A stretch of 64,000 bases of DNA from a virus (IMGVR_UViG_2974789816_000001); one strand, 5' to 3'. Positions 2,404-52,135 are shown, numbered from the stretch's first letter. A program made the numbers and translations. The notes: generated by a model from the letters alone, not told the origin.

Positions 2404-2958
2404 ATGAGTGATTGTCAAGAAGAGTATAAGAAATGGAAGGAGTTTAGGACATCAGTGTGCCACTTGAATGAACATAGAACACATAAGGTGTCAGGTTCCT
2501 TGGGTGTATATGATGCCTATAAGTATATAAGGAAAAACAAGTGGTTTGACATAGGCAGGCCATTGACTGAGCATGAGTTTTACAGCATTATAAGAAGAGT
2601 CAACAACTATCTGGCTGAAGAGCTGCTTAAAGGACATGATATTAGTCTTCCTCATAGGATGGGAAGACTGGAGCTGAGAAAATATGATGCCAAAATCTAC
2701 CTTAAAGATAATAAGGTTGTCACCAACTTGCCAATAGATTGGGATAAGACATTAAGGTTATGGTATGAAGACAAGGAATCTTATGATAATAGGACTTTAG
2801 TTAGAATGGAGGAGAAAGAGGTATTTAAAATCCATTATAATAGAAGTAAGGCAGACTATAATAACCAAACCTTTTATGAGTTCAATCCCAATAGAGAATT
2901 AAGGAAAGAATTGAAGAAGAGGATAAAAGATGGCAAGATTGATGCCTTCAAGTGTTAA
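2404..2958 (+). CDS. hypothetical protein
   Basis: 184-aa ORF, tightly packed, no motif recognised. Confidence 0.4.
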   Translation: MSDCQEEYKKWKEFRTSVCHLNEHRTHKVSGSLGVYDAYKYIRKNKWFDIGRPLTEHEFYSIIRRVNNYLAEELLKGHDISLPHRMGRLELRKYDAKIYLKDNKVVTNLPIDWDKTLRLWYEDKESYDNRTLVRMEEKEVFKIHYNRSKADYNNQTFYEFNPNRELRKELKKRIKDGKIDAFKC

Positions 2959-2994
2959 ACTAAAGGATTGTAGAAATTTAATTGAGATGGATAA

Positions 2995-3702
2995 ATGATT
3001 AATAATATTCAATATACTAACATCAGACAGATACTGGATAGACTGAAAAGGCATCCTCTATTGCAGAACCTTACACTTGAACAAGTGATATCCCACCTAG
3101 TTACATTTATTGGGATATTTGGAATGCCAGAGTTATATTTAAATAAGGAGAGTGTACTGCATATAGAAGAGTTTAGGGCCATATTACCCTGTGACCTTGT
3201 ATCCATAAATCAGGTGAAGGAGTGTAAGACTGGGATATGTTTAAGGAGTATGACAGATAATTTCATGCCTAGAGAACATCGTGATAAGTATGAAGGACAT
3301 AAAAGACCACAAGAGTTTGCCTTTAAGACACAAGGCAGAGTAATATATACTTCCTTCAAGTCAGGAGATATAATGGTCTCATATAAGTCTGTTCCAATAG
3401 ATGAGGATGGGTTTCCATTGCTCATAGACAATCCTATGTTTATGAGAACACTTGAGCTATATATTAAGATGGAAGAGTTCACTACTTTGTTTGATATGGG
3501 AAAGATTTCTCCTGCTGTATTACAGAACACCCAACAACAATATGCTTGGTCAGCAGGACAATTACAGAGTGAATTTACTATACCATCACAATCTGAAATG
3601 GAATCAATAAGCAGAATGTGGAATACTCTTATTCAAAGGACAAGTGAGTTTGATAATGGATTCTCTTCTCTTGGCAATAAAGAGTATATAAAATTGCAAT
3701 AG
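2995..3702 (+). CDS. hypothetical protein
   Basis: 235-aa ORF. Its stop abuts the start of the 1453-aa gene (3702/3704). Confidence 0.4.
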   Translation: MINNIQYTNIRQILDRLKRHPLLQNLTLEQVISHLVTFIGIFGMPELYLNKESVLHIEEFRAILPCDLVSINQVKECKTGICLRSMTDNFMPREHRDKYEGHKRPQEFAFKTQGRVIYTSFKSGDIMVSYKSVPIDEDGFPLLIDNPMFMRTLELYIKMEEFTTLFDMGKISPAVLQNTQQQYAWSAGQLQSEFTIPSQSEMESISRMWNTLIQRTSEFDNGFSSLGNKEYIKLQ

Positions 3703-8184: not shown

Positions 8185-10956
8185 ATGGTTAATAGAAAAG
8201 TTATAAGGAAACACAATAGTCCTGTTACTACTGGTATCATTAATAGATATGATGATGGTGGTAGTATATGGGACATTAGCAAGCTTTTTACCAAAGAAAA
8301 CTTAGGTAAACTAGGTCTTGGATTATTAGGCCCTGCTGGTAATGCAGCAAATGGTTTAATAAGTAATGGACTAAGTTCAGGAGCAGGCAATGCAGTCAAT
8401 AAAGTAGGAAGTACTGTGGGTTCTGCCATTAGCACAGTCAACCCTTTATTAGGAGGCATTGTGTCTGCTGGTACTGGGTTGATAGGTGGTATAACCAATG
8501 CATTATTCGGTTCAAAGATTAATGAGGAAAATGTCAATAATGTCAGAAACTCCAATAATGCCCTGAGTACAGTTAAAGTTGATAGCAGTAGCAATGACTC
8601 TATACTTAATCAATGGTCTAATCAGGACTTTGGAGCAGACTTCTCCCAATCAGATATTGGGAAAGATGGATTGTTCAGTGACAAGGCAGAAGATTTATAC
8701 AATGAGTTGAAGAAGGAACAGGAGATAGCCAGAGGCAGGGCACTGCTAAGTTATGATAATGCAATAGAAAGTGCCGATAAGATGAATGATTTAAGAGCTA
8801 TGTCCAATTACATGGCAAAGGGAGGTAAGATTCATATCAAGCCTGAGAACAGAGGCAAGTTTACTGCCCTTAAAAAGAGGACTGGAAAGTCAGCATCTTG
8901 GTTCAAGGAGCATGGTACTCCTGCACAAAAGAAGATGGCTACCTTTGCCTTGAATGCTAGAAAGTGGAAACATGATGATGGAGGATGGATAGATGAAGAG
9001 TTTACTTTGCCTTATAGTGCCTATATAGCAGACAGGGTAAATAACATGGGACTTAATAACTCTCAAAAGGCTGCTGTATACAGTTCAATATATGGGGAAT
9101 CAAGGTTCAATCCCTATGCCTATAATCCCAGAGGTGGTGGAAAGGGAGCACATGGAATCATGCAATGGAGAGGTGCCAGAATACCTGAAAGCTCTTATCT
9201 GCCTAGCCAAATGGACTACTTGGAAAATACACTTAATAGTGTAGATAGGATGAATTGGTTGAGTAAGAGAAGTCTGAACAATTTCAAGAAATCCAATACT
9301 CCTGAGGCTTCCTCCTCTGCATTTGAAAGAGGATATGTCAGGGGAGAGGAGTTCTCTAGAACCTCTAAAAGAAAGAAGGCAAGGTCTGTATATGACAAGA
9401 TGCACACTCCCAGTCTGTCTGACTTATCAGATTATAATATGAGAACTATTACCAAACCTAATATACAAATACCTTTTAATCCATTTGGAGATGGTGGCCT
9501 CATGGGTACTCATGGAGCAGATTTTACCAATGGTGTCACTGTTATAAATAATGGAGGATACCATGAAGAGAATCCACATGAAGGAGTACAGATTGGGGTT
9601 GATTATAATGGAATACCTAATCTTGTGGAAGAAGGAGAGGTGATTTATAATGATTATGTATTTAGTAACAGGATTAAAGTACCTGATTCAGTGAAGCAGA
9701 AGTATAAATTGAAAGGTGGCAAAGGTCTGACATTTGCAGATGCTGCCAAAAAGATTCAAAAGGAATCTGAGGAAAGGCCCAATGACCCAATAAGCAAGAG
9801 AGGGCTGGAAGATGGTCTTATAAAGTTAATGCAGGAGCAAGAGGCTCTTAGAGGACAGGGGCAATATGGACTTGAAGGAGTACAATATGCAGAGGGAGGT
9901 CTTATACCTGATGATTACACATATACTCCGGTGTTTGGTTCTTGGAAATCAGGAGAGATGCCAGAGGTTACAGCTACAGCAAAGAGACCCAGCATGATTA
10001 AATATGTGGATTATAATATACCTTCTACCATAGAGCCTATAGGTATTGATGGGCTTTATGCAGGATTTAGTGGCTTGTCCCCTATGGAAATATCAGGTAT
10101 TGGTGAAGTAGGATATGATATACCTTCTAATGTGGAAGGTACAACTCCTGCTAAAGTTAGGGTACCCAAAAGAAAGGGTAATACAGATAGAAGAGGATTT
10201 GATGCTACTTGGCTAAGATATGCACCTGTAGTAGGTTCTGCAATAGGATTGGGTCAAAGTATATTCAGCAGGCCTGATTATACAGGACCTGATGCAATCA
10301 TAGAGGCTGCAAACAAAGTAGGTAATTATGTTCCTGTAAGCTATAAGCCAATAGGGAATTATCTGCAATATAAACCACTTGACAGGAACTTTTATATAAA
10401 TAAGCTTGGTGCACAGGCTGGTGCAACAAGAAGAGCTATTATGAACTCTTCAAGTCCTTCAAGGAATGCCGCACTACTTGCAGCAGACTATAATGCACAA
10501 GGCAAGTTGGGAGACTTGGCAAGACAGGCTGAGGAGTATAACTTGGCACAGAGACAGATGGTAGAGCAGTTTAATAGAGGAACCAATCAAGCAAACTCTG
10601 AGATGGGGCTTAAAGCTGCAATGGCTAATCAGGAGGCTGCACTAAAGGCAGGAAGTACAAGGCTAAGTGGTATTACACAAGCTATGGCAATGAGAGATGC
10701 AATAGATGCAAGAAGAGGTGCAAGTATGAGTGCTAACCTGACTAATCTGTTTGACTCATTGGGTAATATAGGAATAGATGCTTATAACAGGTCTGACAGG
10801 GATATGCTAATCAACTCAGGGGTATTTGGTACTCTAAGCCAGAAACCTAAGGAATGGAGTAAAGAAGAGTGGGAGGATTACAAGATGTCTGTAGCAGGAG
10901 GCAAGTATTCTAAAGGAGGAAAATTAAAGAAGAGAAGAGGAGGTCTCACTTACTAA
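8185..10956 (+). CDS. Tail/virion-associated protein with a lytic-transglycosylase (SLT/lysozyme-like) domain and a Gly-rich N-terminal region. The listed ORF starts at TTG 8164, inside the promoter motif; ATG 8185 (MVNRK...) is the more likely start.
   Basis: Motif ...GESRFNPYAYNPRGGGKGAHGIMQWRG... (catalytic Glu-Ser followed by GIMQ) is typical of SLT-family transglycosylases. N-terminal block GLGLLGPAGNAANGLISNGLSSGAGNAV... is glycine-zipper-like. Confidence 0.55.
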   Translation: MVNRKVIRKHNSPVTTGIINRYDDGGSIWDISKLFTKENLGKLGLGLLGPAGNAANGLISNGLSSGAGNAVNKVGSTVGSAISTVNPLLGGIVSAGTGLIGGITNALFGSKINEENVNNVRNSNNALSTVKVDSSSNDSILNQWSNQDFGADFSQSDIGKDGLFSDKAEDLYNELKKEQEIARGRALLSYDNAIESADKMNDLRAMSNYMAKGGKIHIKPENRGKFTALKKRTGKSASWFKEHGTPAQKKMATFALNARKWKHDDGGWIDEEFTLPYSAYIADRVNNMGLNNSQKAAVYSSIYGESRFNPYAYNPRGGGKGAHGIMQWRGARIPESSYLPSQMDYLENTLNSVDRMNWLSKRSLNNFKKSNTPEASSSAFERGYVRGEEFSRTSKRKKARSVYDKMHTPSLSDLSDYNMRTITKPNIQIPFNPFGDGGLMGTHGADFTNGVTVINNGGYHEENPHEGVQIGVDYNGIPNLVEEGEVIYNDYVFSNRIKVPDSVKQKYKLKGGKGLTFADAAKKIQKESEERPNDPISKRGLEDGLIKLMQEQEALRGQGQYGLEGVQYAEGGLIPDDYTYTPVFGSWKSGEMPEVTATAKRPSMIKYVDYNIPSTIEPIGIDGLYAGFSGLSPMEISGIGEVGYDIPSNVEGTTPAKVRVPKRKGNTDRRGFDATWLRYAPVVGSAIGLGQSIFSRPDYTGPDAIIEAANKVGNYVPVSYKPIGNYLQYKPLDRNFYINKLGAQAGATRRAIMNSSSPSRNAALLAADYNAQGKLGDLARQAEEYNLAQRQMVEQFNRGTNQANSEMGLKAAMANQEAALKAGSTRLSGITQAMAMRDAIDARRGASMSANLTNLFDSLGNIGIDAYNRSDRDMLINSGVFGTLSQKPKEWSKEEWEDYKMSVAGGKYSKGGKLKKRRGGLTY

Positions 10957-37909: not shown

Positions 37910-38446
37910 TTACTTAATTCCTGTTGAGCCAAATCCTAATCTATTTTCATTGCCCAAATCATCTACTTCCACAAGTTCAATACCTGAACTTAGCAGCCAT
38001 TTAATCTTCTGCCACATAGTAGCTTTCTGACTAAGCTGTATCCTAAATTGACAGATTCTGTCACCTGCTTCAATAGTGGTCTCTCTCATAGGAGAACATA
38101 CATAGTGCCACTGGTCATCATTGCCATTATATATGTTATCCACTACACCTTGACCATTTGGGATGAATAATCCTAACTTCTTAGGACCACTACTCCTTGA
38201 ATCAATAATAGCTTCAAATCCTTGTGGTAGTTGCATTGCAACTCCAAGAGGAATGTAATAGGTGGGAATCTCTACATCCCTATGACCTACTCTCTCTCCT
38301 TCAACAGTTTTTCTCTTAAGAACATTAGCCTGTGGTGCAGGAATAGTGATGTCTATAGCAGACCTTAAATCTACCCAATCACCATTCTCATTGATTACAG
38401 GCATACATCCCTTAGTCAATACTTTTACTTTAATTTTCAATTTCAT
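37910..38446 (-). CDS. dut: dUTPase
   Basis: Motif 1-like NGDWVDLRSA, motif 2 RSSGPKK, motif 3-like GQGVVDNIYNG. Confidence 0.6.
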   Translation of the reverse strand: MKLKIKVKVLTKGCMPVINENGDWVDLRSAIDITIPAPQANVLKRKTVEGERVGHRDVEIPTYYIPLGVAMQLPQGFEAIIDSRSSGPKKLGLFIPNGQGVVDNIYNGNDDQWHYVCSPMRETTIEAGDRICQFRIQLSQKATMWQKIKWLLSSGIELVEVDDLGNENRLGFGSTGIK

Positions 38447-38906
38447 GTTTCCAAAATTTATTTGTTATGTCTACCAGCTCCTTGCCACTTACCTTGTAGA
38501 ATCTCTGATTAGTAGTCCTACTGTTAAGTGGTCCAAACTCTTCCTTATAAGGTCCTAACTTAATAAAGTCAAACCACTGTAACTGTCTTGCTACTATACC
38601 AGCAAGTTCCTGTCTGCCACTATACCAAGCAACTTTAAGATGGGTGTGTGTCTTCACCCAACTTGCCAAAGCTACTAAGTGTATAGCATCACTATCTCCA
38701 CCCATAAAGGACACACAGGACACTCCTTTGTTACCCTCAATAAGCTCACTAAGGGATGATTTATTTAGGGGTTTTCCAATATCCTGTGCCAAGTAAGAGC
38801 TATGACAGTTTTTGCACCCATTTTTACATCCTGTAATATTTATACATAATGTAATTTCGTCAGGCACCTCTGCAAATGTTACTTGAGTACTCAAATATTT
38901 CAACAT
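38430..38906 (-). CDS. nrdG: anaerobic ribonucleotide reductase activating protein NrdG (radical SAM)
   Basis: CxxxCxxC cluster GCKNGCKNCHSSY. Size ~158 aa. Adjacent to nrdD. Confidence 0.65.
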   Translation of the reverse strand: MLKYLSTQVTFAEVPDEITLCINITGCKNGCKNCHSSYLAQDIGKPLNKSSLSELIEGNKGVSCVSFMGGDSDAIHLVALASWVKTHTHLKVAWYSGRQELAGIVARQLQWFDFIKLGPYKEEFGPLNSRTTNQRFYKVSGKELVDITNKFWKHEIEN

Positions 38907-39588
38907 ATCTTTTAACTATATTAAGGTTATCTATAGGTAGGGGATATTTTTCCACTAAGGTATTAAGATATTCCATATCTCTATCCTTCTTATAAGCAAC
39001 TGCCTCTTCCAAAGTTTTGAAATTTCTATTAACCTTAGCAAACTTCCTCCTCAATCTAACACAATATGTATTATGAGGAGTAAGATAAATACCCTTACCT
39101 ATAGTTGAAATAAAAGTGTTAATCTCTGGAGGTAAGAGAATACAAGTATTAGGAGAGTATATTTTGGGAATATTTAGTATAAGAGATTTGCAATCTTTAT
39201 CTATTTCGAGACTATGACTACTATCTCCATTTTCTTCATACCATCTCCTAAAATTTGAATATATCTTGAACTCTTCTGATACTATTATCCCCTTAGCTCC
39301 ATAAGTACTGTAAACAGGACATTTAGGGTCATAACATCTCCTCTCCATATTCTTCCAAACATTATAAATATGCTTATCAGTAATAGACTCATCACAGATA
39401 AATCCATATTCATCTCTCTTATCTGGATTAGAGACATTACCATATTGGGCACTATCTAATCTAAAATATAGCCTTCTGGTGTATCCCTCAAAATGTCCTG
39501 TGTAATAGTACCTATTCCTTACTTTCTTTGTTGATTTACCTTCTATTACCAAGACATCACCACAACTTTGTAAAATTTTATCTTCCAT
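38860..39588 (-). CDS. Free-standing homing-endonuclease-like protein, with an AP2-like DNA-binding C-terminus and a phage 'WxxMxxRC...YGxxGI' N-terminal module.
   Basis: IYNVWKNMERRCYDPKCPVYSTYGAKGIIVSEEFKIYSNFRRW resembles a module recurring in phage HNH/AP2 endonucleases. C-terminal YCVRLRRKFAKVNRNFKTLEEAVAYKKDRD is AP2-like. It sits in the classic nrdD-nrdG homing-endonuclease insertion spot. Confidence 0.4.
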   Translation of the reverse strand: MEDKILQSCGDVLVIEGKSTKKVRNRYYYTGHFEGYTRRLYFRLDSAQYGNVSNPDKRDEYGFICDESITDKHIYNVWKNMERRCYDPKCPVYSTYGAKGIIVSEEFKIYSNFRRWYEENGDSSHSLEIDKDCKSLILNIPKIYSPNTCILLPPEINTFISTIGKGIYLTPHNTYCVRLRRKFAKVNRNFKTLEEAVAYKKDRDMEYLNTLVEKYPLPIDNLNIVKRYVEIFEYSSNICRGA

Positions 39589-39650: not shown

Positions 39651-40793
39651 TTATACACCTTTACTATAAACTCTTTTGTTAGCTTCAATCTGCCTATCTT
39701 TACCAAATGATTTAATAGGTCTTAAATACCCTATCACTCTTGTATATTGAGTAATATTCTTACTATGGCACTTTGGGCATTCAGTGATAGGATGCTTAGT
39801 AATGTAGCCACAATCATCACACTTACTATTAGGAATATTAAATGTGAAGTAGTTAGTTCCATTAGCTATAGCAAAATCTATAAGCTTGAGATACTGCTCC
39901 TTGCTCAAGTGGTCTTCCAAGTTGATATGAGCTGCACTTCCCCCATCAGTATATTGGTAAGTCTGTCTCCCATGAAGTATAAACTTATCAAGTACTGAGG
40001 TGTCATCATGTGCATCATAGAAGTATGAATTGTACAGGTTCTCATCATCAGGAACCCAATATCCATCCTCTTTATCCCAATTATAATTCTTTCCTCCTAA
40101 CCCTTCAGCAGGAACTACCTCAGAATTGAATAGGAATGGTCTATTGGCATCATGGATAGAATGTATCTTGTTCTGCTCTTTGATAGTACCAAGAACCAGT
40201 TGCAGGAACTCAATATACTCCTTGTTGTTGCCAACAGTCATACCTAAGAATCTTGCAGCCTCATTCAAGCCATTGATACCTATAGTACTATACAATTTGA
40301 TGATGTGAATATACCCGCCATTTGAAGCAGCAAACATACCCTTATCTTCAAGTTCATATAGCATTGTCTTAAATGCAACATGGTACTTGTAGACTCTTTG
40401 GAGAATATCTACTAAGTAATCTCTAAGAAATGAAGTATTTTCTTTCCATCCTCCATTCCTCTTCAATCCATAAGCCTTGTTGCAATCCTGCACAATCCTA
40501 TTGATATTAAGAGTGATTACATTGCATGAACCTGTCATTACACCAGTAAGACCTGATGTAGGATTGAAAGTATTCTCTGCAAGCTCATTCCTCAATCTAC
40601 AACATGATGCAAGACTATCAGCACTATCTGAAATATAGGTGAAGAAGCTATGGCCTTCTGCATACATTTCAGCAGTAAAGTCCTTATACTCCTTATCTAT
40701 GATGTCATTAGTCTTTGGGTCATACACCATAGCCATAGTTTCCACGGGGAATGTAAGTATCTGCTTGGTTCTTAACTTATTGAAGAACTTCAT
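39651..40793 (-). CDS. nrdD: anaerobic ribonucleoside-triphosphate reductase NrdD, 3' exon (C-terminal ~380 aa)
   Basis: Glycyl-radical motif TRVIGYL near the C-terminus, preceded by a C-x2-C...C-x2-C zinc ribbon (CDDCGY...CPKCH). A conserved SCCRL thiyl-radical region is present. Confidence 0.75.
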   Translation of the reverse strand: MKFFNKLRTKQILTFPVETMAMVYDPKTNDIIDKEYKDFTAEMYAEGHSFFTYISDSADSLASCCRLRNELAENTFNPTSGLTGVMTGSCNVITLNINRIVQDCNKAYGLKRNGGWKENTSFLRDYLVDILQRVYKYHVAFKTMLYELEDKGMFAASNGGYIHIIKLYSTIGINGLNEAARFLGMTVGNNKEYIEFLQLVLGTIKEQNKIHSIHDANRPFLFNSEVVPAEGLGGKNYNWDKEDGYWVPDDENLYNSYFYDAHDDTSVLDKFILHGRQTYQYTDGGSAAHINLEDHLSKEQYLKLIDFAIANGTNYFTFNIPNSKCDDCGYITKHPITECPKCHSKNITQYTRVIGYLRPIKSFGKDRQIEANKRVYSKGV

Positions 40794-41854
40794 AAACAGC
40801 CTTTGCAGGCAATCTATTGCCTCCCACTGGGGCTTGGTTCCATCAGGATAATAGAACTCTCCAAATAGTGAATCAAAATATGTGTGGTCATAATAAGATA
40901 CATTTGTAACATTATGTTCACATAGAGTCGTTAATTCTATGCAGTTCTCTTATGAACTTCTTATAGTTTCCTATAAGTTCAGACTATATCATTACTCAAA
41001 AAATGAGTACCCCCAGCTTCCACTCACTTGAGTGTACTTCCATAAAGGAATAGTCGTTGAACCTTACCAATAAATTGGTCTTGGCTGCTGATTGCCATAT
41101 CTTATGACTTAGGGTTCCAGCAATTCAAGGGGTTTATAGTCCACCTACAACTGACCATGTATTTTATGGTGGCACATAGAACACACTGTTATTAGATTAT
41201 TAGGATTATTCAGCTCTTTGTCTTTAACAGCAATCTCGTACAATTTATCTGCATCATCTACTGGTGATAATGGATAATTTTGTATAATAATTCTATTAAG
41301 AATAGACTTAAATGGAATTAAATGATGCACATGTAGGCTATCTTTACTACCACATATAACACATTGATTGCCATCTCTGCAAAGTATGTCCTTTTTCAGA
41401 GAGTCATCACTACAATATTCTCTAATTCTTTGAGATAGTGTAGAAATTCCACCCTTCCAATTAGGATGATTATCTCCTGTCATCAGACCTACCTTGCTTT
41501 CTGAATTATTCCTAATTTTAATACCTAAGTTCTTCAGAACTCTATCAATAACACAAGGGTCACAATTATATCTAATACCAAGCTCTTTCTTTGAAAGACC
41601 CTCTTTCAAATATAATCTTTCCATGACTTCTTTATTGCTAAAGTCTTTAGGAATTTCTTTGGATTTGAAATTCCATTGTGACTCTGATAGAGTTCTTCTC
41701 TCTATAGTATGCTTTTTTAATCTTAACAAGATTGTTCTATGAGAAGTCCCAAACTGTTTTGCTATTTCAGTTGAGGACTTACCTTGTAAATACAAGTCAA
41801 TAATAGTACTATCATCTAAATCTTTTCTATGTGCAGCCATAATTATAAATTATT
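40794..41854 (-). mobile_element. Putative group I intron interrupting nrdD, carrying an HNH homing-endonuclease ORF. Its boundaries are approximate.
   Basis: The nrdD reading frame is split into an N-terminal ORF (41855..42802) and a C-terminal ORF (39651..40793) by ~1.06 kb containing an HNH ORF plus ~350 nt with no ORF. T-even phage nrdD introns are a precedent. Confidence 0.5.
41145..41840 (-). CDS. HNH homing endonuclease (intron-encoded) with N-terminal HTH
   Basis: CVICGSKDSLHVHHLIPFKS...NLITVCSMCHHKIH (HNH with Cys pairs). GDNHPNWKGG motif. N-terminal GKSSTEIAKQFGTSHRTILLRLKK HTH. Confidence 0.8.
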   Translation of the reverse strand: MAAHRKDLDDSTIIDLYLQGKSSTEIAKQFGTSHRTILLRLKKHTIERRTLSESQWNFKSKEIPKDFSNKEVMERLYLKEGLSKKELGIRYNCDPCVIDRVLKNLGIKIRNNSESKVGLMTGDNHPNWKGGISTLSQRIREYCSDDSLKKDILCRDGNQCVICGSKDSLHVHHLIPFKSILNRIIIQNYPLSPVDDADKLYEIAVKDKELNNPNNLITVCSMCHHKIHGQL

Positions 41855-42802
41855 TTATGCTGCAAGGATATAAAATTTATTTGAAAGTACCAAATTTCTT
41901 AATGGACTTTGATATGACCTATTACCAGCAGGCTGATTTACACCATAGATAAACTGTTTGAATGCTTTATATATGGCATCTCTTACAGTCCTCTGCTTAC
42001 TGCAATGGTCTGTAGTAGTTACTACATCCAACTTTTCATACCAATTAGGACCAAATTCCTGCACAATGTAATAGTTAAGGGCAATAAAGTATTCACCTAT
42101 TGCCACTGCACCTTTACACTGAGAAGATAGCAAGAAGATAAGATTGGTTACTTGACCACTGAATGATTGCAGGTCATTAGGAGGTGTTGGAGTGATACCA
42201 TCAATATTGCCAACTCCTTCCATCATAAGAGGATACAGACTCACAGCCATACAATACTGCTTCAAGACAGGAGTGGCTGCTTCATCATGTGTATAAATAA
42301 CATGAGAGTTCAAATCCTCTTCATACTTCTTAGCTACTTCAGGATACATTTCATTCAGCTTGTCTTTCATCCTTTGCCTCTGAATAACCCTATTAGTAGT
42401 CTTATATACTTCACCCTCAAGGTTGGCAACATTCTTCATAGTTACATTTGCATTAGCATCTGTTTCTGATGAAGTGGCTGCATTTTCATTAGACTGACTA
42501 TACTCATCCATATAATCAATTCTTTCTCTAATGAATCTTGCCTGCTTATGCTGCTCTCTATAAATGATATAACTCCTTGCTACATCAAAGTGTTTGTCAT
42601 TCATAAGAACATCCTCAACCTTATTCTGTATCTCCTCAATACCTATAGTATCTCCTTCCAAAGTACCAAACAAGGCACCTATCATATCATACAGATATTG
42701 AGGCATTTTCTTGTTGCAAGACTTAAAGGCTTTCTCTACAGCACTTATAATCTTATCAACATTAAATTCCTCTATACTGCCATCTCTTTTTATTACTTGC
42801 AT
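41855..42802 (-). CDS. nrdD: NrdD, 5' exon (ATP-cone + N-terminal core). The 3' end of this ORF probably reads into intron sequence.
   Basis: The N-terminus MQVIKRDGSIEEFNVDKIISAVEKAF is a textbook ATP-cone start. Confidence 0.7.
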   Translation of the reverse strand: MQVIKRDGSIEEFNVDKIISAVEKAFKSCNKKMPQYLYDMIGALFGTLEGDTIGIEEIQNKVEDVLMNDKHFDVARSYIIYREQHKQARFIRERIDYMDEYSQSNENAATSSETDANANVTMKNVANLEGEVYKTTNRVIQRQRMKDKLNEMYPEVAKKYEEDLNSHVIYTHDEAATPVLKQYCMAVSLYPLMMEGVGNIDGITPTPPNDLQSFSGQVTNLIFLLSSQCKGAVAIGEYFIALNYYIVQEFGPNWYEKLDVVTTTDHCSKQRTVRDAIYKAFKQFIYGVNQPAGNRSYQSPLRNLVLSNKFYILAA

Positions 42803-45176: not shown

Positions 45177-45854
45177 TTAATACTCTTCGTACCATTTTAT
45201 AGGCACACCATAAATCTCTTTTACCTTATTACTTATATCAACAAATAGCTGATGTGGCATCTTAGTACCACTCCTTGCAGAATATGCAGGATGTTCAATC
45301 TCTATAATATGATTGAACCTATCATTAATATAAGGTTTGAAGGTTTGGGCTTGTCTGCCAAACAATACATATACTATAGCTGTATTATATTCAGACAAGT
45401 TCTTTAGCAATTTAGCTATGAAAGGTCTCCACAACATCACATGGGAACCTATCCTATTCATTTCTACAGTGAGTGCAGAGTTTATCATTAGTATTCCTTG
45501 TTTAGACCAACTCTCAAGAGAGTTGTCAAAGGTAATACAATAATGTGGAACCTCAAAATTAATTGCTGCCTCTTTAATAACATTTAATGAAGGAGATAAG
45601 TTATCCTCATCAACTTCCTTTCTATTCCCGAATAATACTCCAGTTGCCACTCCCTTTTGTGGATAAGGATCCTGACCTAACATAACTACTTTCAAGTCAT
45701 TGAGAGGACAAAGCTCGAATGCTCTGAATACATTAGATTGGGCAGGACACAAAGGCTTTCTCCTGTATTCTTGCCCAACCTTAGCCATTACATTATTAAG
45801 CTCTGTCCTATCAATTACCTTCATCCAATCTCCAAAGTATTCATCTAATGTCAT
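45177..45854 (-). CDS. ung: uracil-DNA glycosylase, family 1
   Basis: VVMLGQDPYPQKGVATGVLFGN (the GQDPY water-activating loop). ILMINSALTV, VLFGRQAQ and EHPAYSARSG (the HPSPLS-equivalent) are also present. Confidence 0.85.
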   Translation of the reverse strand: MTLDEYFGDWMKVIDRTELNNVMAKVGQEYRRKPLCPAQSNVFRAFELCPLNDLKVVMLGQDPYPQKGVATGVLFGNRKEVDEDNLSPSLNVIKEAAINFEVPHYCITFDNSLESWSKQGILMINSALTVEMNRIGSHVMLWRPFIAKLLKNLSEYNTAIVYVLFGRQAQTFKPYINDRFNHIIEIEHPAYSARSGTKMPHQLFVDISNKVKEIYGVPIKWYEEY

Positions 45855-46621
45855 ATCAACATCATTATGTCATCAATATTGTCAATAAGGCATTCATTCA
45901 GTGCATCATTAGAGCAGGTAGATGGAGTAGGTTTAATAGGTTCTACAAAGAGCTTATTGAAATTATCTACTATGACCTTTACTTTCCTGTCCTCTGGATT
46001 ACTGCTGAAACTGTAATTGTTTCTTGGGAAATTTACATCCGTACTTATATAATAGGGAATCAATTTCTTGATGATACCTTTATTAATCAACTTATCAGAC
46101 TCTAAGAATACTTTGGGACCGACATGGCACACAGGTCTGTAATAGACCATAGTATTACCATTATCCTCAGTATGTACACTTCTTGCAGTTAATGTACATA
46201 ATAGTAATGGAGTGTAGCTCTCATCAAAGATGATACCTTTACCACCATAATACACTTCACCCTTATTGGTAGTTATCTTCTGCAATCTTCCACCATATCC
46301 TACATTAGTAAATAATTGAGTTATGATACTATTAAAGGTTCTTCTCTCTTGGCTTGGTGCATTATCATATAATGGCAGTATTATCCTCTTGATTCCCATA
46401 ATTGTGGGATAAGCCATATTGTCTGAGACCAGCTTTTCAAAGTGTTCTCTTGCAATCACAGGTATCTCTACCTCACCATTGTTTACTTCAATGACAAGGC
46501 TTCTTCTAAATACATTGTTACTATCAAGAGACAGATTCATTTCAAGTTGGTCTGGATTACCAAACTCACTGCTATTGAAAATACCCATTACATTATATGC
46601 AAATCTTAGGTTAAATTCCAT
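45851..46621 (-). CDS. Hypothetical protein. It is the operon partner downstream of the E1-like gene.
   Basis: 256-aa ORF. Its start overlaps the E1-like stop and its stop overlaps the ung start. Contains internal GYGG/YYGG motifs. Confidence 0.4.
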   Translation of the reverse strand: MEFNLRFAYNVMGIFNSSEFGNPDQLEMNLSLDSNNVFRRSLVIEVNNGEVEIPVIAREHFEKLVSDNMAYPTIMGIKRIILPLYDNAPSQERRTFNSIITQLFTNVGYGGRLQKITTNKGEVYYGGKGIIFDESYTPLLLCTLTARSVHTEDNGNTMVYYRPVCHVGPKVFLESDKLINKGIIKKLIPYYISTDVNFPRNNYSFSSNPEDRKVKVIVDNFNKLFVEPIKPTPSTCSNDALNECLIDNIDDIMMLI

Positions 46622-47559
46622 TATACTTCAGTTTTAAGATACATTGTTTCTGCATTATATGTGGTAAGGAATGGCAGGTCTCTATCAATGAGAGGCTCAC
46701 ATTGATTAGCACAGAAGTTTACAAACAAATTAACCATATAAGATGCAATCATATTTGCACAGAAGGTAGTTTGTTTATAGGAGCAGATAGTTTCATCAGC
46801 TTCTGCATCAGAGAATAGGAACTCATTATTGTACCTATTGATGTTGTACTCATCATCTCCCTTGATACACAATACCTGAAACTCTTCTGCTGCTAATCTG
46901 CCATCAATAAATAAGCAATTCTTTCTCTCCTCTTCTGGTTTGGATTGAACATGATTTACCCATTTATTAAAGAAGAGTCTTCTTGCTGCCATATTATCAA
47001 AGCCACAAATCATAATGTCTGATGCTTCAGATTCATTGGTAAATCTCTCATTTATTGCAAAGACACTGCTATAGCCAGCATAGTTTCTAATCATCTCAGC
47101 CAGTGCAGATACTTTAGTTCTGCCTAAATCAGACTGACCATATAACTGACCTGACATATTGACAGTTTCCACTATGTCATCATCATAGATAAACATGGAA
47201 GCTGGCTTCATTCTTGCCAATAAAAAGCCTACATAACTACCAATACCACCTACACCTGCCAAAATGATAGTCTTCTTCTGAATATTCTCATACCAAATGG
47301 CAGAACTAAACCTACTTGTAGCTTCATCTACAAGCAAAGTTGCAGAGTTTGTAGGTATTTCCTGATGTGCATCCTCTACAGCTTGGTCAAGGATAGCCTG
47401 TTCTTCTTCTGAAAGTCCAGAGCTAATACTATCACCATCATTTTCCATAGGATTATCTGATTCAGGTATAGTACTCTCATTGAGGTCCTCTATAAAAGAA
47501 TTATAAGCTTCCTGTAAAGTTGCAGGAAGGCTTTCTTGGGCTGTTACTTCTTCATTCAT
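46621..47559 (-). CDS. E1-like adenylyltransferase (ThiF/MoeB/HesA fold) with an ~90-aa acidic N-terminal extension
   Basis: Rossmann motif ILAGVGGIGSYVGFLLARMKP. Next is YDDDIVETVNMSGQLYGQSDLGRTKVSALAEMIR (the D-x-D-x-V-E-x-S-N-hx-R-Q-like segment), then ICGFDNMAARRL. C-terminal Cys pairs are present. Confidence 0.65.
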   Translation of the reverse strand: MNEEVTAQESLPATLQEAYNSFIEDLNESTIPESDNPMENDGDSISSGLSEEEQAILDQAVEDAHQEIPTNSATLLVDEATSRFSSAIWYENIQKKTIILAGVGGIGSYVGFLLARMKPASMFIYDDDIVETVNMSGQLYGQSDLGRTKVSALAEMIRNYAGYSSVFAINERFTNESEASDIMICGFDNMAARRLFFNKWVNHVQSKPEEERKNCLFIDGRLAAEEFQVLCIKGDDEYNINRYNNEFLFSDAEADETICSYKQTTFCANMIASYMVNLFVNFCANQCEPLIDRDLPFLTTYNAETMYLKTEV

Positions 47560-48767
47560 AATATTAAATATTTTTGAAGTGCATCAATATACCCTTTGAT
47601 ATAATCATTTTCAGGGAGTTTTGTAAGCTCCTCTATCATATCATGGGCACAAATAGCACAAATTTCTGTTTCATCAAAGCCAAGCTCTTCCAACTTCTCA
47701 TCTGTCACATACCATGTCAGATATTCTGCATAGGTATCTGCCCACATTTTGAAATTTTCCATGCCTTCTTCACCCTTACCAAATCTCTTTTCATACAATG
47801 CAGGCATTGACTTAGCCCATTTGGTAATGTCAATCTTACTATCATTAGAGATAATAATGCTGCCTGTAATCAATTGAAGTACAAGAAGCTTCAAAGTAAC
47901 TTTATCAAATGATACTTGACCATAAGGCATGTCATATTCCTCTTCAAATGGCAAGTCATCTATATCATCAAAAAAAGTTGGCTGAACTACCTCAGGCTTA
48001 TTAGCTTCCTTCTTGACAAGATTTGCTGGACCTGCCTTTGTACCATAGGAATTAGCAATAACAGGTTTATAACCACCTTGATATGTAGGTGTCTGAGCTT
48101 TCTTGGCTTTCTCTGCCTTAGCTTGCTTGATTTCTTCAAGTCTTGCATCCATATCAGGGAAAGAGTAGTTTTCACCCTCTTTCTCTATTTTAAGGTAGAA
48201 CCATTCAATCTCATCTGCATTGCTTGCATATTTCTTAGTATCATGCTTTTCACCATCACCAAAGAACTCATATACTAACATGTCCTTAATTTGACTATAT
48301 CTTTTTACTCTCCTGGTAATGGCGGCAGTATAAGTACCTGCATTATTCACAATGAGAGATACAAAGTTATTTCTATCCCTACCTTCCTCCTTCAGAGTAG
48401 CAGTATCTGTTCCACTAAAGAAGGTACTCATATTGTTATGGGAATGTATAAGACCCATTTGGCAATCAAGTAGCTCAGGATTCTCACACATATAGGCTAT
48501 CACATCAGGATTCATATCAAACTCTGTATAGGCTTGAGTACCAATATCCATAATGTAAATATCCACACATCTTATTACAAGGTCATTATTTTCAAATGAA
48601 CCTTCATGTGTAAAGAATAATGTACCTGACCATTCAGTACTCCACACCTTTTGGCAGGCAAATCTTATCTTTCTCTCCACTTCTGCTGGGATAATCAGCT
48701 TATAATTATAAGTACCTGACTTCTGTACCAAGCTGATTACTTTCGTGGGTTGCTTTATTTCTTCCAT
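47556..48767 (-). CDS. JAB/MPN+ (JAMM) metalloprotease domain protein with a ~240-aa C-terminal extension
   Basis: GLIHSHNNMSTFFSGTDTATL = H-x-H-x7-S-x2-D JAMM zinc motif, with an upstream Glu. Its stop overlaps the E1-like start by 4 nt (ATGA). Confidence 0.6.
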   Translation of the reverse strand: MEEIKQPTKVISLVQKSGTYNYKLIIPAEVERKIRFACQKVWSTEWSGTLFFTHEGSFENNDLVIRCVDIYIMDIGTQAYTEFDMNPDVIAYMCENPELLDCQMGLIHSHNNMSTFFSGTDTATLKEEGRDRNNFVSLIVNNAGTYTAAITRRVKRYSQIKDMLVYEFFGDGEKHDTKKYASNADEIEWFYLKIEKEGENYSFPDMDARLEEIKQAKAEKAKKAQTPTYQGGYKPVIANSYGTKAGPANLVKKEANKPEVVQPTFFDDIDDLPFEEEYDMPYGQVSFDKVTLKLLVLQLITGSIIISNDSKIDITKWAKSMPALYEKRFGKGEEGMENFKMWADTYAEYLTWYVTDEKLEELGFDETEICAICAHDMIEELTKLPENDYIKGYIDALQKYLIL

Positions 48768-50007
48768 ATCTGTAGTTTAACACTTTAAGAATTATATTTA
48801 ATATATACAGTGCAGTCTGAGTATTGAGTATTATACTCTTGTTCTCATTCCTTACTTCCGCAATATCTGTAATATCTACAGTTATCTCTCTTCCCTTGAA
48901 TACACACACTTTCTTGCCTATATACTGAGTATAATTATTTACATTATTCCTGCCACTATCATAGTAAATCTTCCCATTGTCTATGATACATTCCCTAAGT
49001 AATTTTCTTGTCTTTAGGTTGTCAAATGTGTTAGTGACTTCACCTTTGTTGAACAAGTCATTGTACCAAGAAATGAACTCATTACTGATAAGGATAATGT
49101 ACTCTAGCAAAGACATCCCTATTGAATAACTACCATTTACATAGTTGAATTTGAGCTTCTTTGTATTGATAAAGTGCCTTACAAAGTCCCTCAACTTGTC
49201 AGTAGACAGGGTATCACCATAGTAATTAGGAGACAGATATGTAATGAATCTATCTACACCTACTTCCATATTATTGGTACCTAACTTCTCCAAGTAATTA
49301 TAAGGTACTCCAGCAACAGATTCTACAGTCACATACTTACTCAGTTCAAGGCAGAACATATTCCACATATCCTCATCATAATCCCTATTGAGGGCACTAA
49401 TAGTACCATTAATAGGACCACTGCCTGTACAAGGATTTTGGAATTGGGTGAAATCCCCTGTAGGGATACTACTGATATGACTGTGCATGTAATGACTTCT
49501 GATGTGAAGCAGGGTATACTCTGACCTGTTAAGTGTGAATCCTCCATTCAGTGTACCATTATAAGACACCTTTACTTTAGCCCATAAGTGGTTAATATCC
49601 ACAAATCTATCATGCTCATTAGTCACTCTTACATGAGGGAAATGCACAAGTATGAATATGCCATTGAACTTAGCATTACCAATTCTTTCCTTTACTGTAG
49701 TATTTGTAAGCACATTTACAACCTTTTCTACCTGGTCTCCAGGTAAATCAGTAATAGACCATGTTTTATACATGCTCCAGTCATTCATGTTCATGCTTAC
49801 AATATTACCACCAGGAATATAAGTAGATAAAGGCTCTATATTCATCCAAGATTTGAACTTGTCCAAACTCCAATATCCTTGCATATCAACTTTATCCTCT
49901 CCAAAGAAATCATTGAATATGCCTAATACTCGAAGTGGCTTGTCCATCAAGGAGTTATATAGTTCCTCTATCTTCTCCTCAATTAATTTAATTGTTTCTC
50001 CACTCAT
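48706..50007 (-). CDS. hypothetical protein
   Basis: 433-aa ORF. Its 3' end overlaps the JAB start by ~60 nt. Confidence 0.4.
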   Translation of the reverse strand: MSGETIKLIEEKIEELYNSLMDKPLRVLGIFNDFFGEDKVDMQGYWSLDKFKSWMNIEPLSTYIPGGNIVSMNMNDWSMYKTWSITDLPGDQVEKVVNVLTNTTVKERIGNAKFNGIFILVHFPHVRVTNEHDRFVDINHLWAKVKVSYNGTLNGGFTLNRSEYTLLHIRSHYMHSHISSIPTGDFTQFQNPCTGSGPINGTISALNRDYDEDMWNMFCLELSKYVTVESVAGVPYNYLEKLGTNNMEVGVDRFITYLSPNYYGDTLSTDKLRDFVRHFINTKKLKFNYVNGSYSIGMSLLEYIILISNEFISWYNDLFNKGEVTNTFDNLKTRKLLRECIIDNGKIYYDSGRNNVNNYTQYIGKKVCVFKGREITVDITDIAEVRNENKSIILNTQTALYILNIILKVLNYRYGRNKATHESNQLGTEVRYL

Positions 50008-50064
50008 ATTACTGTAAAAAAATAGGTAAGGGGGTATCTCTACCCTCTTACCTATTGTCTGTTA

Positions 50065-50721
50065 TTAATGAATACTCATTCCTTCAAACATATCATTAAT
50101 CTCATCATCAGAGTAAGGAGAAGCTGGCTTAGGCTTATACTCCTCAGATGGTGCAACTTTTACTGCACCCTCAAGAATATCAAGCACTTTCTCTTTCTCA
50201 TAATCTTCAATTGTGCCATTGTCCTCAAGAATTTCCACCAACTTGCTGATAGCAGCTCTTGCTACAGTATCAACACACTCACCACCATTACTTGCAGGTG
50301 CTACAGGAGCAGGTTTTGAAGCACCATTGCTCTGTACCAATGCAATAAGGTCAGCAGTCTTACACATAGTGAAGTTTTTGCCAAACTTCTTAAGGCAAGC
50401 ATCTTGAAGACCCCTTCTCTTGATTTCAGCATATATCTCCATTCTACTCATTGCGCCAGACTTAATTTTCTTGTTGGTGTTAGTAAGCATGAAAACCAAC
50501 TCATTGGTGACAATTCCCTTATAAGGAACATCATGTGGCAGAACTGAAGCATCATTCTTCAATTCAACCCTTGATGTACCTTCAAAGAAGGTCATACCAT
50601 TATAGTCAATACCATTGGCTCTCAGGTCACTTTTCAACTCAGCAAGGGTCGTGGCTGCTGACATAATAACACTCTTCTTCTGATTCTTAGTCTGTATGAC
50701 TGTAATTTTACGACTTTGCAT
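50065..50721 (-). CDS. hypothetical protein
   Basis: 218-aa ORF, first gene after a ~370-nt gap. Confidence 0.4.
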   Translation of the reverse strand: MQSRKITVIQTKNQKKSVIMSAATTLAELKSDLRANGIDYNGMTFFEGTSRVELKNDASVLPHDVPYKGIVTNELVFMLTNTNKKIKSGAMSRMEIYAEIKRRGLQDACLKKFGKNFTMCKTADLIALVQSNGASKPAPVAPASNGGECVDTVARAAISKLVEILEDNGTIEDYEKEKVLDILEGAVKVAPSEEYKPKPASPYSDDEINDMFEGMSIH

Positions 50722-50742
50722 AACTTTTTAATATTTTATGTT

Positions 50743-51074
50743 TCACAATGTTTTGAATTTCCAAATATAACCATAGGCTGTTTTTCTTTTAACAGTGCCA
50801 AATTGGGTATCTGCTACACCATTACAACATTTTAAAATATTAGTAACAGCTGCTTTTATATTTCCATTGTTCACTGTCCTTGCAGCTTCTGCTATACTTG
50901 GAAATTCTTTTAAAAATTCTCTTGTTTTAGAGTATTGAAGGGCTGGGATACTAAAGAAGGGATTGTTAGTCAGGCTATTAGACAGCTTACTATTCCTGTT
51001 TCCATAATTCAGATTATACTTGTGACTACGTAATTAGGGAATCCATCTATTTCTCTCCATTCCTTCATACCCAT
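50743..51074 (-). pseudogene. Degenerate homing-endonuclease remnant: a NUMOD4-like N-terminus and NUMOD1/IENR-like HTH C-terminus in two frames (frameshift), with the catalytic core missing.
   Basis: Minus-strand translation gives M(G)MKEWREIDGFPNYVVTSII* (frame 1). The +1 frame then reads ...NYGNRNSKLSNSLTNNPFFSIPALQYSKTREFLKEFPSIAEAARTVNNGNIKAAVTNILKCCNGVADTQFGTVKRKTAYGYIWKFKTL*. 'W..I.GFPNY.VSN.G...S' and 'F.SI.EAAR......G.....I......G......TA.GY.W...' are hallmark homing-endonuclease DNA-binding modules. There is no Met in the second frame. Confidence 0.45.
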
Positions 51075-51094
51075 TCAATTTTTTTTTCTTTTAT

Positions 51095-52135
51095 TTAATC
51101 TATGCAAAAGGGCAAATCATCCCAATCATTGTCCTCTTGTCTTGAAGAGTTGAATAAAGGCTTGATTATTCTAAGGAACTCATCTTTGCCCTTAGCCTTA
51201 TACAAGTCTGAAATATCTTTCCCTTCATTAAAGGGTGGCAATACTACATTAGTAAATCCTGTTTCCTCAGCTAACTTCTGAGCATCTTTCAATCCTGGCT
51301 CATCATTATCCAAGCAAATGAAGACTTGTTTATATCTTCTTTTCAGTTCACTAATTGCAGTATCACTCATCCTATATCCCTCACCCTGTATTGCAAGAGA
51401 GGGTATTCCTGTGTTAGTCCATAGACATAAAGCATCTTTCAATGAGGAGCAAATGCAAATTTGCTCTCCATATTCAGGTACTTTAGTCCATAGACTTACC
51501 ACAGAAGTGTCATGTTTATTACTCCATTTATAACCACCTTTGTTAAATGGCTGATAGATTTTGAGAGTAACCTTACCTTCCTTATGTTCTACATAAGCAT
51601 AGGCATATCTGTCAGCTCCAAATACATACTTATTACCATCTTTGATGACAATCTTATGTGATATTGGATAAACTTCTGCATACTTCAGCCAGTCAAGACT
51701 TATTCCATAGGATGCCCAATACTCAATATCATGAGGTGCCCAATCTCTGACTTTACATTGCAGCTCTGTATTATTGAGCTTGAAAATCTTAGGAGTTAAG
51801 TGTTGCTTTGAAGTATTTATACCTAGGTCTTTTGTACTGAACTTAGAAATATCATGAGCTATCTTGGCAAGAGCTTCTATATAATTGCATCCCCACAACT
51901 TGCAAAGAATATCAAAAGTATTTCCTCTGTCCTTAGTTGCAAAGTCTACATAGTAGACTCTATGCCCATCTCTGGAATAAAGTCCAAAGGAAGCCTTATC
52001 ATCTATTCTTAAAGGAGAATGAATTACACAGGGAATTTCTGTAACTCCAAGATAATAAGCTAAAATATCTGCTTCTGTAGTTTTACTTAGAATATCATCT
52101 AAAGTCACAGAAGGATTACTCTTGCCAATAGCCAT
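51095..52135 (-). CDS. DnaG-like DNA primase (degenerate zinc-binding domain + TOPRIM)
   Basis: TOPRIM: SLAIQGEGY (Glu) ... VFICLDNDEPGLKDAQKLAEE (DxD). The N-terminal PLRIDDKASFGLYSRDGHRVYYVDFATKDRGNTFDILCKLWGCNYIEALAKIA parallels the DnaG zinc-ribbon region. Confidence 0.6.
   Translation of the reverse strand: MAIGKSNPSVTLDDILSKTTEADILAYYLGVTEIPCVIHSPLRIDDKASFGLYSRDGHRVYYVDFATKDRGNTFDILCKLWGCNYIEALAKIAHDISKFSTKDLGINTSKQHLTPKIFKLNNTELQCKVRDWAPHDIEYWASYGISLDWLKYAEVYPISHKIVIKDGNKYVFGADRYAYAYVEHKEGKVTLKIYQPFNKGGYKWSNKHDTSVVSLWTKVPEYGEQICICSSLKDALCLWTNTGIPSLAIQGEGYRMSDTAISELKRRYKQVFICLDNDEPGLKDAQKLAEETGFTNVVLPPFNEGKDISDLYKAKGKDEFLRIIKPLFNSSRQEDNDWDDLPFCID

Follow-up and report, generated by a model that had tools for sequence, protein, structure and literature searches.

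The window analysed here is a 64,000-nucleotide stretch of viral DNA (IMGVR_UViG_2974789816_000001) belonging to a crAss-like phage, whose closest match among deposited genomes is bajarodcaudo virus 1, at 79% nucleotide identity across this region. Between positions 45851 and 50721, on the minus strand, lie five adjoining open reading frames (ORFs). In the order in which they are read, these encode a 218-residue protein that we regard as the precursor of a ubiquitin-like protein, or Ubl (p218; 50065-50721), a candidate E2-like protein of the UBC/RWD fold (p433; 48706-50007), a 403-residue JAB/MPN+ metalloprotease-like protein recognized by its JAMM motif (47556-48767), a 312-residue E1-like adenylating enzyme recognized by the Pfam ThiF domain (46621-47559) and a fifth protein of 256 residues (p256; 45851-46621). 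We interpret this gene block as a phage-owned Ubl conjugation-type module whose precursor is matured by the JAB protein, a reading that we consider probably, if by no means certainly, correct. Bacteroides phage crAss001 and related phages (Steigviridae, Asinivirinae) carry the same gene block; the crAss001 counterparts, gp79 to gp75, are annotated only as 'hypothetical', 'metalloprotease domain' or 'thiamine biosynthesis protein'.

The genes are closely interlocked. The JAB and E1 genes meet in an ATGA overlap (...TTATGAATG), the E1 and p256 genes in a TAATG junction with a 1-nt overlap, and p256 overlaps the following gene, for uracil-DNA glycosylase (UDG; 45177-45854, minus strand), again by ATGA. 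The p433 and JAB genes share 62 nt (48706-48767), and this long overlap is kept elsewhere, at 62 nt in crAss001 and bajarodcaudo virus 1, 80 nt in Dulem virus 41 and 125 nt in FpV4. A primase gene (51095-52135, minus strand) lies on the other side of the module. An earlier, sequence-only reading of this DNA had pointed to the coupled E1-like and JAB genes as unexpected cargo of a phage replication block; the overlap, the E1/ThiF motifs (Pfam ThiF, E=7.3e-17) and the location were all borne out, with the primase and UDG genes adjoining the module on either side.

Gene order and co-inheritance can be observed directly. Of the 80 loci to which a search with nothing but the Ubl domain led, 72 show the genes in the order Ubl precursor, E2-like protein, JAB, E1 and p256, the rest being cut by contig ends or having no detectable p256. 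Synteny across crAss-like genomes, to which the sequence-only reading had looked for a check, is extensive: the order is kept in about 150 IMG/VR loci, in crAss001 (gp79-gp75) and further Steigviridae, and also in the FpV4 and Dulem phages, which are distant. In crAss-like phages the module is flanked by the primase and UDG genes, and in FpV4 it directly follows a primase-UDG pair. The Ubl domain and the JAB protein each occur in 74 phage records of identical taxonomic make-up, comprising 45 Asinivirinae-type crAss-like phages and 29 FpV4-like phages of Flavobacterium psychrophilum; the E1 occurs in records with that same make-up and in 9 further ones with unrelated ThiF genes. A search for gene fusions of the 'Rosetta stone' kind found no ORF matching two of the families in about 160 loci.

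The modifier itself is predicted to reside in the N-terminal part of p218. In alignments of orthologues from 80 IMG/VR loci the first 90 residues are the most conserved part of the protein and display a ubiquitin-like pattern. An AlphaFold2 model, built from an alignment of the window, search-hit and cluster-representative sequences, gives residues 1-89 (50455-50721, minus strand) as a β-grasp domain, with a predicted local distance difference test (pLDDT) score of 80-90 over residues 1-80, strands at 4-10, 15-21, 43-47, 65-72 and 75-81, and a helix at 26-35. The top Foldseek matches of this model in the PDB are SUMO1, DIX, the TINCR Ubl, ISG15 and ubiquitin (E ~1e-3, probability 1.0, TMt 0.6-0.7), and those in the top 50 are SUMO1, DIX, ISG15, ubiquitin, UBX and RBD domains, the leading matches all belonging to the ubiquitin superfamily. 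The N-terminus of p218 is thus a predicted ubiquitin-like β-grasp fold. Searches with p218 returned nothing informative in Pfam, PHROGs, NCBIfam or PADLOC, and its family profile found no PDB sequence; the PHROGs matches of the p433, p256 and p218 set were only to families of 'unknown function', from FpV4-like phages.

Past the last strand the model continues into a low-confidence linker, T-N-K-K-I-K-S88-G89-A90, in which the domain's tail K-K-I-K-S88-G89 is embedded. The Ser-Gly pair is invariant in 189 unique sequences and is kept in FpV4 (K-S-G-G) and Dulem virus 41 (S-S-G-T), and the surrounding motif K-x-[IV]-[KRS]-S-G is invariant across the crAss-like, Dulem and FpV4 lineages, while the next residue varies (A/T/S/G/K/I) and insertions and deletions occur immediately behind the pair. 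Residues 90-218 (50068-50454, minus strand) form a C-terminal extension, modelled as a three-helix, HeH-like segment (93-131), a variable linker rich in Pro, Lys and Glu, helices at 152-183 and an acidic tail, SPYSDDEIDxMF; Pfam HeH gave weak matches in 2 of 14 relatives (E=0.044). We take the acidic tail to resemble that of the single-stranded DNA-binding protein. The C-terminal part and the genomic position together suggest, speculatively, that the protein acts at replicating DNA. The sequence-only reading had seen no β-grasp protein nearby, which proved mistaken, the domain lying in p218 and beyond the segment considered there. Its alternative, a Ubl embedded in a larger protein, was right in principle (residues 1-89 of p218) but named the wrong hosts: the 'TYQGGYKP' of the JAB protein sits in a non-conserved linker of variable length, the 'GYGG' of p256 is not conserved, and its 'YYGG' is an internal conserved motif, and none of the three was retained as a Ubl tail.

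A further line of evidence comes from natural disruptions of the p218 gene. In four loci a free-standing HNH endonuclease gene stands two codons past the Ser-Gly pair (L013, 3476-3988; L055, 3574-4047; L057; and L163, 6281-6796), representing at least three separate lineages; L013 is a close relative of the window, and L163 is cr106_1, of a different genus. Each split locus has a stand-alone Ubl ORF of 91-92 codons, ending in ...KKI[KR]SG followed by IC or KF and a stop, and a separate ORF for the C-terminal part. A group I intron was considered as the cause and rejected, since Rfam detected none at the split genes. The insert is almost entirely the endonuclease ORF, and these are therefore real gene fissions, apparently produced by a free-standing endonuclease homing to the conserved Ser-Gly site. 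The fission shows that the two halves need no covalent link, and its junction is exactly the expected place of a maturation cut.

Relics of similar elements occur beside the gene. The spacer between primase and p218 (50722-51094, minus strand) holds a decayed homing-endonuclease gene, reading MGMKEWREIDGFPNYVVTSII up to a stop codon and then ...KAAVTNILKCCNGVADTQFGTVKRKTAYGYIWKFK in another frame. In L013 the same spacer carries an intact 184-residue HNH endonuclease (2613-3167; MGMKEWRDIDGFPNYMVSNTGEIKS...AYGYKWKLKTL), to which the second HNH gene of that locus, inside the Ubl precursor, is related.

Membership of the 312-residue protein in the E1 superfamily is secure on sequence grounds. 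It matches Pfam ThiF (PF00899) over residues 90-233 with E=7.3e-17 and 61.7 bits against a gathering score of 28.1. The closest solved protein to its family profile is UBA5 (2.8e-12), followed by MccB (1.4e-10), PaaA, TcdA, ThiF/MoeB (~4e-7) and UBA3/UBA6, with BubCD at 5.9e-5 and Cap2 at 7.5e-5. Its best PADLOC matches are the E1-E2 (Cap2) models of CBASS, the anti-phage systems that signal through cyclic oligonucleotides (1.6e-12), with BilD only partially matched (1.6e-5), and its best NCBIfam matches are ThiF models (1.7e-18). It nonetheless falls below all NCBIfam equivalog cut-offs, with 67 against 159 bits for PRK08644, 36.4 against 144.75 for PRTRC_ThiF, 33.7 against 320 for 6A-MBL and 23.8 against 376 for MoeB, and is therefore a superfamily member and not an ortholog of any named enzyme. 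The enzyme consists of a single adenylation domain of about 230 residues (79-312; 46624-47325), and the Rossmann loop G102VGGIG107 (47236-47256), with its pattern G102-x-G-G-x-G107, as well as D126-D128, K149 and D188-N-M...R193, are invariant across relatives and align with the GVGGVG...DYD...K...DN of UBA5; beside the Rossmann loop, the superfamily's ribose-binding Asp, its Lys and the Mg-binding Asp of its D-N motif are thereby all accounted for. Also invariant is a cysteine, C259 (46783-46785), in the segment A-D-E-T-I-C-S-Y-K-Q-T-T, kept even in FpV4 and Dulem virus 41.

Ahead of the adenylation domain stands the acidic N-terminal extension that the sequence-only reading had described, of about 80 residues. 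The accompanying suggestion of a hidden domain was rejected for the window phage, as the extension is variable in length, not conserved and missing from some relatives. The crAss001 clade and one other clade (L002, L077 and L078; L060, L062 and L065) have a longer N-terminal segment, of about 100-150 residues with conserved hydrophobic patterning (for example ...GEWEIIHEEQHVSGAYLVTIG...); unlike the short acidic extension of the window, it may constitute an extra domain. An E1-like protein of another kind was found in the Xanthomonas jumbo phage PhiXhv-16 (L169; PV764603, 86865-87548). This 227-residue member of the ThiF family (Pfam, 4.8e-21) is unrelated to the module E1, is encoded next to an 892-residue Cys-rich hypothetical protein and topoisomerase genes, and has the conserved Arg replaced (NLPNQ). 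No JAB, Ubl or E2 was detectable as its partner, so we dismissed it as a second system of this type; here a phage puts an E1-like enzyme to some other use.

The JAB protein has, by sequence, a complete and conserved JAMM motif, E45...H108-S-H110-x7-S118-x2-D121 (E45, 48633-48635; H108-D121, 48405-48446), as the sequence-only reading had held. The bare pattern H.H.{7}S..D is weak evidence when taken alone, because about 0.25 chance occurrences are expected per shuffled window; E45, H108, H110, S118 and D121 are, however, invariant in 11 non-redundant relatives of 39-78% identity, and also in FpV4 and Dulem virus 41. In the PDB the protein is matched to JAMM1 (E=0.054). It is laid out as a JAMM domain (about residues 1-165), a variable linker and a conserved helical domain (about 285-403), and the roughly 240 extra C-terminal residues noted earlier are indeed present.

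For p433 the AlphaFold2 model is of moderate quality (pLDDT 69.8) and shows a core at about residues 90-227 (49327-49740), in which helices at 90-113 are followed by a strand meander (118-165), a long loop and helices at 198-227. Invariant residues among 149 representatives, of 29-52% identity, include S176, H177, C193, G195, G197 and P198. They are concentrated in the motifs Y-M-H-S-H (H175-S176-H177, 49477-49485, with H175 nearly invariant) and P-C193-x-G-x-G-P (C193, 49429-49431) of the loop between strand 163-165 and helix 198-208, the region that holds the active site in E2 enzymes. Ser-His and Cys stand 16 residues apart, a longer spacing than canonical E2s have, and C193 is the only cysteine of p433 also kept in FpV4 and Dulem virus 41. 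Searches of Pfam, PHROGs, NCBIfam and PADLOC gave nothing informative, and the p433 profile found no PDB sequence. Foldseek of the model against the PDB gave a best E of 1.4, and hhalign of the profile with UBE2D2 a probability of 0.6%; the E2 assignment is therefore one of fold only, which we make with moderate confidence. For the E2/UBC fold that the sequence-only reading had raised for this neighbour, the model offers a tentative fold-level resemblance, and the profile searches gave no match. The family is large, with at least 2,435 clusters at 50% identity (E<=1e-3), and when 185,579 bacterial and archaeal genomes were scanned with only two peptide patterns, 3 matches came up, all from phage contigs mis-binned in metagenome-assembled genomes.

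The fifth protein, p256, is the most divergent member of the module, with identities down to 26-29%, and follows the E1 in the same 72 of 80 Ubl-recovered loci, with 152 ORFs in the approximately 160 loci. It has a conserved motif, GEVYYGGxGIILD, and no invariant Cys, Ser or His. It matched nothing in Pfam, PHROGs, NCBIfam, PADLOC or the PDB, and a Pfam scan of 20 members for recurrent weak matches revealed none to E2, RWD or UEV families.

By analogy with the Bil and Bub systems of bacteria, we infer the following course of events. The JAB protein would cut p218 after Gly89, on the pattern of BubAB, which BubCD cleaves, and of the trimming of pro-UFM1 and pro-Atg8, and a dimer of the E1 would adenylate the carboxylate of the freed glycine. 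The E1 may hold the Ubl on its invariant Cys259; by this route, directly, or both, the Ubl would pass to the E2-like protein, as a thioester on Cys193 or as an oxyester on Ser176, which stands beside His177 as in Bub. Finally, in the replication phase, the Ubl would be joined to lysines on proteins of the phage or the host. In such a scheme p256 may serve as an adaptor, substrate or regulator, and the JAB protein may also reverse the conjugation.

Several observations weigh against this interpretation. The module, as it is known here from genes and predicted structures, includes neither a target nor an E3. The Ser-Gly of p218 is internal and followed by an alanine, instead of being a terminal Gly-Gly, and cleavage behind it is a putative step. 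In the E1 the phosphate-contacting Arg of the N-x-x-R-Q/L motif is replaced by Gly137 (N134-M-S-G137-Q; 47145-47159), which aligns opposite the Arg of NLTRQ in MccB and NMNRL in UBA5; the change is invariant through the crAss-like clade, Dulem virus 41 (NMAGQ) and FpV4 (NTGGQ). The place of C259 in the crossover loop is presumed, having been set by eye against ThiF and UBA5 sequences, and the hidden Markov model alignments end before this residue. The JAB protein scores under the gathering threshold of Pfam Prok-JAB (PF14464; 21.0 against 25 bits, E=3.1e-4). A single method stands behind the E2-like assignment of p433, and Pfam scans of 13 and a further 107 diverse members, 120 in all, with E up to 1-5, gave no match to E2, RWD or UEV families (UQ_con, Prok-E2_A-E). 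Finally, the Ubl gene and the enzyme genes are set apart by a hairpin that resembles a terminator. This terminator- or attenuator-like element (50014-50056, minus strand), between p218 and p433, has a 16-bp GC-rich stem (-20.7 kcal/mol) followed by U7; a hairpin with a T-run, differing in stem sequence, occupies the same site in 11 of 13 relatives and occurs also in crAss001 and FpV4, and is absent after the Ubl gene of Dulem virus 41. It could be an attenuator that keeps the dosage of the modifier above that of the enzymes, or the Ubl gene could have its own transcription unit.

The same hairpin fits an alternative in which only the E1 and JAB proteins are a working pair, acting in the manner of Cap2 and Cap3 on the C-terminus of a non-Ubl protein of phage or host; p218 would then be a replisome-associated DNA-binding protein with a structural β-grasp domain, as the resemblance of its C-terminal part to a DNA- or replisome-binding module would allow, and p433 a non-catalytic, UEV/RWD-like scaffold. 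The CBASS Cap2 models are also the best PADLOC matches of the E1. We judge this unlikely, because it leaves the invariant Ser-Gly tail and the fission precisely there unexplained, because the Ubl, JAB and E1 have the same phyletic distribution and remain neighbours in three distant lineages, because the invariant Ser-His and Cys of p433 argue for catalysis, and because no CD-NTase-like partner is found in the module. A slightly less probable role again, although partly compatible with the conjugation module that we favour, is the counter-defence envisaged in the sequence-only reading. The module would antagonize the Ubl-based immunity of Bacteroidota hosts (Bil, Bub or type II CBASS), with the JAB protein stripping conjugates of host Ubl or CD-NTase and the phage Ubl, E1 and E2 serving as decoys or competitors. 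The characterized prokaryotic operons of E1, E2, JAB and Ubl are all anti-phage (PMC11601596), and the p433 family was found in phage contigs only in the scan with two peptide patterns. A deconjugase alone would be enough to strip conjugates, however, no BilA, BilB or BilC model of PADLOC was matched, and the module keeps one position among the replication genes, next to primase and usually UDG, and was present wherever these lineages were sampled, which looks like a core function and not like an accessory anti-defence cassette.

Sulfur transfer offers yet another precedent for an E1, a β-grasp protein and a JAB protein acting together, as in CysO/Mec+, QbsE or ThiS/MoaD/TtuB, where the product would be a protein thiocarboxylate serving to make a thio-cofactor or thiolated nucleotide. 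Sulfur carriers processed by JAB are known (PMC1779556), ThiF models are the best NCBIfam matches of the E1 (1.7e-18), and its GenBank label is 'thiamine biosynthesis protein'. We nevertheless find this reading very improbable. The ThiF and MoeB equivalog scores fall far short (67 against 159 and 23.8 against 376 bits), the five-gene module has no rhodanese, sulfurtransferase, desulfurase or ThiG/MoaE-like gene, the tail is Ser-Gly-X and not Gly-Gly, sulfur transfer has no use for an E2-like protein, and the closest solved E1, UBA5, is a conjugation enzyme. The sequence-only reading's reservation that this might be an ordinary ThiS/MoaD pathway is settled in the negative by the NCBIfam ThiF, MoeB, PRTRC and 6A-MBL models, all far below cut-off, and its ideas of a sulfur carrier or a nucleotide modification found no support.

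Among known systems the conjugation module that we propose most invites comparison with type I Bub (formerly 6E.1/DUF6527; BubAB, BubCD and BubE; PMC11601596), whose gene order it matches, as it does that of operon types 6d/6e (PMC1779556). In Bub, the Ubl fusion precursor is cleaved by a JAB domain joined to the front of a minimal E1, and the E2 has a non-canonical nucleophile. Both have a Ubl pre-protein whose C-terminal fusion partner is, or in the phage would be, removed by JAB, a JAB directly before a minimal E1 of the homodimer type (fused in Bub, ATGA-coupled here), an E2-like protein whose active site is, or in the phage is predicted to be, non-canonical and a fifth, accessory gene at the end. 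They differ in that the roughly 160 phage loci have no fusions and no match to DUF6527/BubE, and p256 has no Ser-His dyad. In addition, the phage Ubl is fused to an HeH-like, acidic module instead of an E2, the phage E1 has an invariant Cys at what is presumed to be the position of a Tyr in BubCD, and the phage genes reside in the replication block of lytic phages, whereas type I Bub is found in bacterial defence islands. Bil shares with the phage module its four separate genes in the order Ubl-E2-JAB-E1 (BilA-BilB-BilC-BilD) and a processing or deconjugating JAB; unlike it, Bil defends bacteria by tagging the tail proteins of phages, and BilD is a large E1 of IAD-AAD-CYS build, against a single adenylation domain here (partial PADLOC match to BilD at 1.6e-5, none to BilA, BilB or BilC, and none for the four other module proteins). 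Type II CBASS has an E2-E1 fusion (Cap2), Cap3 and a CD-NTase, whereas in the phage the E1 and the E2-like protein have genes of their own, with that of the JAB in between, and the module has a dedicated β-grasp modifier but no nucleotidyltransferase.

In eukaryotes, the UFM1 precursor has two residues trimmed to expose a single Gly, and UBA5, the closest solved relative of the phage E1 (2.8e-12), is a minimal, homodimeric E1. That pathway differs in its UFC1 and UFL1 and in its cysteine trimming proteases in place of JAB, and p433 has no detectable relation to UFC1. The pathways of ThiF/ThiS, MoeB/MoaD and CysO-MoeZ-Mec+ have an E1 superfamily member, a β-grasp partner and, for CysO/QbsE, a JAB maturase in common with the module; they differ from it in the widely missed equivalog cut-offs, in their sulfur-transfer partners and Gly-Gly end, and in lacking the E2-like protein. 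The only earlier phage case in the literature that we searched is that of lambda and T1, in which a β-grasp Ubl joined to a C-terminal domain (TAPI) is predicted to be released by TAPK, which combines a JAB domain with an NlpC/P60 domain (PMC1779556). It is a tail-assembly module of unrelated families, with no E1 and no E2 and so no conjugation. The same literature contains no description of the present module, the crAss001 papers being silent on gp75-gp79, and a 2026 preprint mentions, as an aside, a gut-phage family that resembles UBA5. Systems of this kind are known from bacteria; the phage-owned version proposed here is new, its Ubl, E2-like, JAB-accessory and fifth-gene families being unrelated and its precursor put together differently.

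Outside the module, the window carries further traces of mobile elements. The gene for anaerobic ribonucleotide reductase, nrdD (39651-42802, minus strand), is split into an N-terminal part (41855-42802) and a C-terminal part (39651-40793) by an insertion in which Rfam recognizes a group I intron (RF00028, 96.6 bits, 40960-41203) and which also holds an HNH endonuclease ORF (41145-41840); the gene of bajarodcaudo virus 1 runs uninterrupted for 2,244 nt. Between nrdD and an nrdG-like activase gene (38430-38906) lies an ORF of 242 codons (38860-39588, minus strand) whose product, by eye, is like free-standing homing-endonuclease/AP2-type DNA-binding proteins (...YNVWKNMERRCYDPKCPVYSTYGAKGIIV...). 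Another group I intron (Rfam RF00028, 84.8 bits) is found downstream of the module in L013, at 9691-9934.

In its fullest form our proposal is that the Steigviridae, including crAss001 with its gp75-gp79, and the FpV4-like phages run their own complete Ubl cascade during genome replication, with the Ubl freed from a replisome-tethering precursor and tagging phage or host proteins through a previously unrecognized E2-like family with a Ser-His/Cys active site; this we advance tentatively, with doubt slightly outweighing belief. The module is directly testable because crAss001 and DAC15/17 can be cultivated, and the tail K-K-I-(K/R)-S-G predicts that trypsin would leave a Ser-Gly remnant (+144.05 Da) on modified lysines. 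If the proposal is true, it would describe the first Ubl conjugation system that belongs to a bacterial virus, and one that tags phage or host proteins instead of defending the cell. Prokaryotic operons of E1, E2, JAB and Ubl, such as type II CBASS, Bil and Bub, are currently seen as bacterial weapons against phages; here an operon of like logic is fixed in the replication block of one of the most abundant groups of human-gut phages, and, the E1 aside, no sequence match links its component families to their bacterial counterparts. Should the module be active, the very large p433-like family would gain a function and the E2-like proteins a new active-site variant, and phages, too, would use ubiquitin-like tagging, for the control of replication, for host takeover or for counter-defence.

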